From Escherichia phage vB_Ec_DUEC01, in sequence record PQ799475.1: a stretch of DNA of 43,949 bases; one strand, written 5' to 3'. The position numbers were made by a program, and so were the translations under genes. How positions within the stretch are numbered: the stretch's first letter is position 1; the number at the start of each line of letters is the position of its first letter. A model generated the notes under the pieces. It was not told the DNA's origin, did not search any database, and saw nothing but the letters and a program-made list of their open reading frames with translations. Positions 36,519-36,775 of the stretch are shown here, piece after piece.

Positions 36519-36548
36519 TTGAAAGTTCTTGACACATGTTTGTATAAT
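36519..36548 (+). promoter_or_regulatory. putative rightward promoter TTGAAA-N18-TATAAT
   Basis: near-consensus boxes in the divergent control region; no ORF follows for ~350 nt. Confidence 0.45.
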
Positions 36549-36572
36549 GGTTTTGGGACTTGTATATATTAC

Positions 36573-36610
36573 GGGGTTGACGAACCCTCCCCGAGGGATT
36601 CGTCAACCCC
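36573..36610. repeat. 38-bp near-perfect palindrome GGGGTTGACGAA CCCTC CCC GAGGG A TTCGTCAACCCC
   Basis: 12-bp outer arms plus 5-bp inner arms, one bulged A; each arm contains TTGACG. Confidence 0.7.
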
Positions 36611-36747
36611 TCCCAGACAGCTGAGATGCTTGCCTTGTGGTTTAAGGATAAGTGTATCTAAATCTCATTTAAAGAAGTAACCCGCTGAAATATCTACTGT
36701 TTCTTAATGTGCCGTAGATTCGCAACCGTAAAAATGTAACGATTATT

Positions 36748-36775
36748 GGGCAGGCTTAGGGCCTGCCCTTTAGTT
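36748..36775 (+). terminator. hairpin terminator GGGCAGGC-TTAGG-GCCTGCCC + TTTAGTT
   Basis: 8-bp GC stem with U-rich tail, ~220 nt downstream of promoter 36519-36548. Confidence 0.45.

Follow-up and report, generated by a model that had tools for sequence, protein, structure and literature searches.

A promoter-headed, ORF-less interval between the divergent arms of a Kagunavirus genome as a candidate structured leader

The window, which is the whole 43,949-nucleotide stretch of DNA of Escherichia phage vB_Ec_DUEC01 (PQ799475.1) that was analysed, is a complete genome of a Kagunavirus (Guernseyvirinae), with phages Bas71, Bas74, and vB-Eco-KMB35 as its nearest relatives. An ORF-less interval separates a leftward replication arm from a rightward arm (Table 1). 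The replication arm encodes an HTH_17 regulator, a helicase-primase, a PD-(D/E)XK nuclease, a single-stranded DNA-binding protein, a family A DNA polymerase, a methylase, and an SNF2 helicase. The helicase-primase (33535-35757, minus strand) occurs among Kagunavirus phages with two unrelated N-terminal halves of about 345 residues, starting with MNIVFATL or MSDVILSY, and a conserved C-terminal AAA_25 half; the difference is a domain swap within Kagunavirus that is independent of the leader types described below. The rightward arm contains small genes of unknown function, two holin genes, an HNH endonuclease gene, and an endolysin gene, crosses the end of the window, and continues with large plus-strand ORFs at the window start up to a Hoc-like decoration gene (4400-4861). 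The HNH endonuclease gene (40487-41053) is an insertion between the holin and endolysin genes.

About 40 ORFs, not including the large plus-strand ORFs at the window start, were scanned against Pfam or PHROG, and no homolog of a phage RNA polymerase, Q, or N was identified. Many small ORFs belong to no Pfam or PHROG family, and a novel antitermination factor is therefore still conceivable. No replication initiator protein is recognizable among the scanned ORFs, and no tRNA or tmRNA genes were found. The GC skew at the interval is uninformative, because gene orientation switches there. A strong intrinsic terminator with an 8-bp stem and a 9-nt loop (41587-41613), followed by a U7 tract (to 41620), is positioned 3' of the endolysin gene; it escaped the scanning tool owing to the loop limit of the latter. 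Since it is followed by a promoter, TTGACT-N17-TATATT (41645-41673), the rightward arm is not a single long operon.

Table 1 Features of the interval at 36.5 kb, its flanks, and the paralogous cassette at 5.2 kb
Feature	Position	Strand	Description
HTH_17 / excisionase-like regulator gene	36239-36421	-	60 aa; first gene of the replication arm
Candidate leftward promoter	36453-36481	-	TTGCTT-N17-TATACT; back to back with P1; assigned by eye, below the scan threshold
P1, sigma-70 promoter	36519-36548	+	TTGAAA (36519-36524)-N18-TATAAT (36543-36548); 11/12 consensus match
5' stem-loop of type-A module	36573-36610	+	12 + 5 bp, one bulged A; -29.5 kcal/mol
Second predicted stem-loop	36624-36659	+	GAGAUG...UAUCUC around CCUUG...UAAGG; holds the hot spot 36633-36638 and the mini-ORF 36626-36661
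3' module (i)	36685-36843	+	82-94% identity in Kagunavirus and Jerseyvirus phages with differing 5' modules
Terminator-like hairpin	36736-36777	+	GC core 36748-36768; tail UUUAGUU 36769-36775; outer GUAAC/GUUAC pairs can lengthen the stem
Conserved spacer past the hairpin	36778-36840	+	A-rich stretch; CACAAC 36797-36802 and 36817-36822; GGCAAC 36823-36828; 8-nt hot spot 36804-36811
P2, promoter of the first rightward gene	36841-36870	+	TTGCAC-N17-TACTAT; palindrome AATAG-GATA-CTATT (36857-36870) over the -10
First rightward gene	36904-37101	+	MFKKGQL..., 65 aa; phrog_12538; function unknown
Locus-1 cassette	5217-5450	+	Promoter, structured leader, GC hairpin; paralog of type C
Locus-1 promoter	5217-5245	+	TTGACT-N17 (with TGn)-TAAGCT
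Locus-1 structured leader	5246-5348	+	118.9 bits with model R1
Locus-1 GC hairpin	5427-5444	+	25 nt before the start codon of the Rz-like spanin gene

The interval starts with promoter P1. Sites matching the sigma-70 consensus in at least 11 of 12 positions occur three times on both strands of the window, P1 included, against an expectation of 0.37 (mean of 60 dinucleotide-preserving shuffles; maximum 2). The remaining two are leftward promoters inside the replication arm. P1 is unchanged in 12 relatives that share the window's version of the element, type A. The promoter spacing places the predicted transcription start near 36555-36556, and the predicted transcript extends from about 36555 to 36775, a length of approximately 220 nt. 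A 226-nt transcript has a folding energy of -78.3 kcal/mol (z = -5.3 relative to shuffles), and the reverse strand of the region reaches z = -4.1. The pairs of the 5' stem-loop are all of the Watson-Crick type, and the hairpin could thus form on either strand. In types B and D, the equivalent relative place is occupied by a stable GC-rich hairpin of unrelated sequence. The hexamer TATATT at 36566-36571, about +12 to +17 from the predicted start, resembles a -10 element and is noted only as a lead to a sigma-dependent promoter-proximal pause of the lambda Q kind; similar hexamers are missing in types C and D. A boxA-like similarity near the descending arm of the hairpin was judged by eye, found unconvincing, and dropped.

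The GC core of the terminator-like hairpin has the sequence GGGCAGGC-UUA-GGGCCUGCCC and is followed by UUUAGUUACC. Its d'Aubenton-Carafa-type score is +14, compared to +31 for the clear terminator at 41587-41613, and the hairpin would therefore be a weak to moderate terminator. At the corresponding sites of phage fBC-Eco01, its annotators had placed a host promoter and a terminator, both as purely computational predictions. Neither the counterparts in the sister modules, which have negative scores, nor the hairpin of the paralogous cassette at 5.2 kb qualifies as an intrinsic terminator by score. U-tracts are missing from the hairpins of the other modules, and the terminator is therefore not a conserved property of the element.

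The hairpin is embedded in 3' module (i), the conservation of which starts at 36685 and reaches the -35 element of P2. The core of the module is almost invariant in the aligned loci of phages infecting E. coli and Salmonella. The module includes UAUCUAC...GUAGAU (36692-36719) and a GCCGUA motif (36711-36716). The combination UAUCU...GCCGUA, present in most modules, was considered as a shared core motif. It was rejected as not significant in the window, where its two occurrences compare with an expectation of 0.39 and two were also reached in 3 of 100 shuffles. Counting both strands, the window contains 50 copies of the hexamer GCCGTA, compared to 27 ± 5 in shuffles, none of which reaches 50. 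Sequence conservation continues for approximately 65 nt past the terminator-like hairpin. This conservation of the spacer beyond the putative 3' end points to read-through transcription or to a site that functions as DNA.

Promoter P2 is located 3' of the hairpin, and the first rightward genes can thus do without P1. The 33-nt motif of P2 is repeated at 38211-38242 (plus strand), 13917-13885 (minus), and 5150-5119 (minus). In the four copies of TTGCAC-N17-TACTAT, the palindrome AATAG-N4-CTATT overlies the -10 element, and two leftward TTGACA-N17-TATAGT promoters (33237-33209 and 30937-30909, minus strand) carry it in the spacer. The palindrome is probably an operator of a phage regulator. The program PHIRE had marked this promoter family as "phage promoter" in fBC-Eco01. 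A palindrome built from these half-sites in reversed order, CTATTCGAATAG (5205-5216), abuts the -35 element of the locus-1 promoter, a position typical of an activator site.

The original prediction, which was made from the sequence of the window, had named a near-consensus promoter, a very stable hairpin at 36573-36610, a terminator-like hairpin at 36748-36775, a separate promoter of the next gene at 36841-36869, and the lack of any intervening ORF longer than about 10 codons with a ribosome-binding site. The promoter is where it was placed and is rare in the genome; both hairpins are present, the second being weak to moderate on score, and P2 is a member of a repeated promoter family.

The statement on coding capacity also holds. 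On the plus strand, the only ORFs of at least 20 aa in the interval (36519-36680 and 36529-36624) begin within P1, upstream of the predicted start near 36555. Within the transcript, no ATG-initiated ORF exceeds 11 codons; the longest (36626-36661; MLALWFKDKCI) has no clear Shine-Dalgarno sequence. Its frame is open in all type-A relatives and is missing from types B-D. Codons 3-5 of this mini-ORF coincide with the sole variation hot spot of the 5' module (36633-36638), which reads CCTTGT, CCTTGG, TTTTAG, or CCCAAC. In Bas71, two minus-strand ORFs of 33 and 59 aa carry annotations as hypothetical proteins; no PHROG family corresponds to either. The 59-aa ORF overlaps the hairpin and P2, its frame is broken by 1-nt indels among relatives, and its annotated length varies. 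The equivalents of Bas71_0054 and Bas71_0055 (36505-36606 and 36694-36873, minus strand) are probably spurious gene calls, as are, probably, the similar coding sequences that cover the promoter, hairpin, and P2 in ORH_001, Bas70, Bas76, and 590B. As far as sequence analysis goes, protein coding is excluded, and we take the interval to be noncoding.

More than 60 related loci were gathered from IMG/VR and GenBank. A common layout was seen in all of the 40-plus Kagunavirus and Jerseyvirus relatives examined. Beyond the leftward HTH gene comes a strong sigma-70 promoter, then an ORF-free stretch of 245-315 nt, a GC-rich hairpin, a GAATCACAACGGCAACGTAAC block, P2, and a gene for a protein starting with MFK. 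The layout is kept even where the sequence is fully replaced. The 5' modules belong to at least four mutually unalignable types (A-D), and the 3' modules to three (i-iii). The observed pairings are A+i, B+i, B+ii, C+ii, C+iii, and D+ii. Type A was found in 20 phage records with at least 80% coverage and 95-99.8% identity. Type B is typical of K1ind1-like phages and, in a diverged form, of most Jerseyviruses (326 records). Type C occupies the slot of the window's element in about 40 Kagunavirus records (the search returned 180 records with 222 places), and type D is found in K1G-like phages (9 records). In 3' module (iii), a run of CTCA repeats precedes the hairpin, with about seven copies in one locus (L008) and three in another (L011).

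The leader type is not tied to the helicase-primase, as the types cut across its two N-terminal variants; this independence gives no support for a type-specific initiator. Types A and C were both found beside a 100% identical HTH protein. In two more distant phages, SSL-2009a and St162, which have a helicase-primase of 30-38% identity, the intergenic organization differs.

Searching with the type-C module revealed a paralogous cassette in the window, locus 1, upstream of the Rz-like spanin gene at 5470, which is followed by scaffold and major head protein genes. Because there is no promoter between the locus-1 hairpin and the Rz gene, the locus-1 RNA must be a 5' leader of the late mRNA. Copies of the locus-1 element were found in 180 phage records, and in 179 of these the identity is 95-99%. 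We built a covariance model, R1, from 16 type-C and locus-1 sequences. A diverged homolog in the Jerseyvirus SE2, in which the first stem has a different sequence, scores 37.6 bits. In one relative (L086), the locus-1 copy bears a variant of stem-loop 2 that is otherwise confined to locus 2, the slot at 36.5 kb. The two loci thus appear to swap sequence, and the variant suggests exchange between them.

The fold of the type-C/locus-1 family is clearly supported by covariation. In the alignment, 98.5% of cells are paired; shifting the 3' partners by 1-3 columns lowers this share to 33-46%. Double-sided changes affect four pairs and 23 cells, compared to 7.3 cells in column shuffles. A single pair occurs in the three forms CG, UA, and AU, and two invariant G-U pairs are possible on the sense strand only. 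In type B and the Jerseyvirus copies, three pairs are compensated, one of them by a change from C-G to U-A in the terminator stem. The hypervariable hairpin of type B has six different sequences, each with a predicted folding energy of -15 to -26 kcal/mol. Type A is nearly invariant and therefore shows no covariation: none of its 69 predicted pairs has double-sided changes. Five pairs have one-sided changes and remain paired on the plus strand as G-U or A-U. In the second stem-loop, C-to-U and G-to-A changes among relatives keep the pairing, and the CCCAAC variant breaks two pairs.

With filters off, model R1 matched nothing at 36.5 kb in the window, and its best other matches scored 7-11 bits (E > 1). 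The type-A element occupies the same slot and has the same layout as the type-C/locus-1 family, with no detectable similarity in sequence or structure. Since R1 misses type A, and type A lacks double-sided covariation, the tie of type A to the supported family is one of position and architecture, not of homology.

A covariance-model search of Rfam, proposed in the original prediction, was run against Rfam 15 with the window, the region, locus 1, and eight related loci, and yielded no match at the gathering threshold; the best E-values were 0.28-10, and such matches span the terminator hairpin or palindrome only. A BLAST search of 5,426 E. coli genomes with both cassettes gave no match, short seed matches being invisible to such a search; host mimicry or a prophage origin is thus not detectable. 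Candidate antisense targets inside the phage genome amounted to short, chance-level repeats, and what looked like matches to the ribosome-binding regions of two genes, the HTH gene and the 96-aa gene, turned out to be same-sense and not complementary. In the literature on transcription in Kagunavirus, Jerseyvirus, and Guernseyvirinae, we found no description of such RNAs, and the RNA-seq paper on phage K1B4 reports genes and nothing else. The corresponding stretch of vB_EcoS-K1_SXAU_B4 (OQ696342, 19162-19651; public RNA-seq in PMC12645636) is 96% identical. Promoter-proximal phage noncoding RNAs are a known kind of element; the present families and their modular exchange are undescribed in Rfam and the papers searched.

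Phage lambda offers one of the closest known cassettes. The strong sigma-70 promoter PR' of lambda drives the ORF-less 6S RNA of approximately 200 nt, which ends at the terminator tR' ahead of the lysis genes and is read through by means of Q. The element resembles this arrangement in its strong sigma-70 promoter, predicted ORF-less transcript of about 200 nt, terminator-like hairpin, and downstream lysis genes: holin and endolysin genes follow locus 2, and Rz, scaffold, and capsid genes follow locus 1. Unlike in lambda, no Q homolog was found in the approximately 40 ORFs, P2 follows the hairpin, and the putative terminator is weak. Furthermore, RNA structure is conserved in the sister family here; lambda 6S RNA is not known to have an established function. 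We know of no lambda counterpart of the interchangeable sequence types.

Put RNAs bring about factor-independent antitermination via the zinc-binding domain of the RNA polymerase β' subunit. The two promoter-proximal structured RNAs of phage HK022, putL and putR, act in cis and do not need a phage protein (PMC9378689). They are about 70 nt long and contain two stems, with a triplex in stem I (PMC9378689). The phage analysed here is similar in that it has two cassettes per genome and no recognizable antiterminator protein, a comparison made with put as described. In contrast, the put copies resemble each other at about 70 nt, whereas the elements of the phage are 100-300 nt long and the window's two copies are unrelated.

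The replication origin of the Lactococcus phage c2 (Ceduovirus) lies in a divergent intergenic region, where it takes up an interval between the first two promoters that is devoid of ORFs and ribosome-binding sites (PMC7150918). It exists in several sequence types, each conserved internally and unrelated to the others, and a noncoding transcript, PE1-T, from the first early promoter was proposed to be crucial for the start of replication (PMC7150918). Recombinant c2 origins were not found, and chimeric origins are non-functional (PMC7150918). The element shares with the c2 origin the ORF-less interval between promoters and the several unrelated sequence types. The two differ in host and lineage, in that the modules recombine here, and in the second copy among late genes. 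The six module combinations observed show that the elements are not indivisible units of the c2 kind.

Judged from its sequence features, the interval is probably a genuine ORF-less transcription unit; its transcription, 3' end, and effect on termination are predicted. The broad reading of the original prediction, a noncoding RNA or regulatory leader, is strengthened by the exceptional promoter, the lack of coding, and the layout recurring in relatives. Less can be said for its narrower claim, a discrete RNA of about 200 nt that ends at the second hairpin: the hairpin is present, but the U-tract is weak, the sister and 5.2-kb hairpins do not score as terminators, and the RNA of the 5.2-kb locus must act as a 5' leader. 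We tentatively favor, at slightly less than an even chance, a structured leader or terminated transcript close to its promoter, acting in cis and gating transcription of the rightward arm. Host RNA polymerase would recognize P1 and synthesize a structured RNA of about 220 nt, which would either stop at the weak intrinsic terminator (36748-36775) or be continued by read-through into the operator-bearing P2 and the rightward block of small genes, two holins, and endolysin. Following the logic of the lambda cassette or of HK022 put, the leader would decide in cis between the early end and processive continuation of rightward transcripts, and the terminated 220-nt RNA may be a by-product or a loading platform. 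We favor the cis-acting leader because the same slot in other Kagunaviruses holds a second copy of a leader with a supported fold. It is also consistent with the layout common to all relatives, with the locus-1 RNA being a leader, with the one-sided changes in type A that keep the pairing on the plus strand, with the position of locus 2 before the holin and endolysin genes and of locus 1 at the head of the Rz-scaffold-capsid block, with P1 being among only three sites of its quality, and with the lack of Q, N, and RNA polymerase homologs in the scanned ORFs. Against it stand P2 after the hairpin, the division of the arm at 41.6 kb, the lack of an identified antiterminator protein, the hairpins without U-tracts in the other modules, and type A itself, which has no double-sided covariation and is missed by R1.

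A different role for the same transcript would be that of a discrete, abundant early RNA acting in trans, stable at about 220 nt from P1 to the terminator-like hairpin (t1), with host or phage targets reached by base pairing, protein sequestration, or action as an anti-defence decoy. The near-consensus promoter, the hairpin followed by U residues in module (i), and the strong predicted structure fit such an RNA, as does the near-invariance of module (i) across E. coli and Salmonella phages, which would be expected of sequence-specific interaction; the mosaic swapping of 5' modules resembles arms-race loci. We nevertheless consider a trans-acting RNA unlikely, as no complementary phage target and no similarity in the 5,426 E. 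coli genomes were found (short seeds being invisible), the sister modules lack terminators, the locus-1 paralog is a 5' UTR, and conservation extends about 65 nt past the hairpin. An Hfq-type sRNA would be expected to end in an intrinsic terminator with an extended U tail and to reach a target through a conserved seed; the tail UUUAGUU is poor in this respect. An origin of replication is a serious alternative of similarly low probability. The primary origin of phage T7 is transcription-activated or RNA-primed, and the P1 transcript could likewise provide a primer or R-loop for the replisome of helicase-primase, family A polymerase, and single-stranded DNA-binding protein. The layout matches that of the c2 origin (PMC7150918), the element adjoins the replication arm, an initiator protein is not recognizable, and the independence of leader type from the helicase-primase variant fits an origin that operates without a phage-specific initiator. 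However, a paralogous copy is located in the morphogenesis region directly before the Rz gene, 5' and 3' modules recombine freely, unlike in c2, and the interval contains neither iterons nor an AT-rich unwinding element beyond the ordinary AT-richness of promoter flanks; the GC skew is no guide, as gene orientation changes at this point. The original prediction set a noncoding RNA against a region that is only a replication origin, and this division is not clean, as the c2 origin itself has a proposed noncoding transcript (PMC7150918).

Two further explanations dispense with an RNA function. The interval may act solely as DNA, a spacer of protein-binding sites in which the hairpins insulate the divergent arms and the RNA has no role. 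The conserved sequence past the hairpin with its CACAAC repeats, the main type-A hairpin that can form on either strand, and the nearby palindromic operator family would agree with this. We find it quite unlikely in view of the sense-strand G-U pairs and compensatory changes in the sister modules, the wobble-compatible changes in type A, and the near-consensus promoter, which is kept in all types though the sequence that it drives is replaced. Least probable by far is that the interval encodes a small protein, either the 11-codon frame or one of the minus-strand ORFs. Pharokka-style annotation calls the latter, and the 11-codon frame is never closed in type-A variants; nevertheless, the mini-ORF is not preceded by a clear Shine-Dalgarno sequence and does not occur in types B-D, and the minus-strand ORFs are without a PHROG family, the longer one with the indels, varying length, and overlaps described above.

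It is possible, although we regard it as improbable, that Guernseyvirinae possess undescribed modular and swappable leader RNAs that head both rightward blocks and reprogram host RNA polymerase, either independently of proteins, like put, or via a small phage factor; type A would then be a structurally distinct solution. From start to finish, these phages depend on the RNA polymerase of the host. Some of them belong to the BASEL collection (Bas70-76), and the group also counts many therapy candidates. An ORF-less cassette with a strong promoter at the heads of both rightward blocks would provide a handle on the timing of lysis and morphogenesis genes. The interchangeable types A-D constitute natural experiments, with one family having a covariation-supported fold. 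The analysis also flags two coding sequences in recent GenBank records as probably spurious. The GenBank records of the Jerseyvirus and Kagunavirus phages skrot, sidste, blauehaus, and EM1 are linearized in or beside the conserved noncoding block equivalent to 36724-36858.
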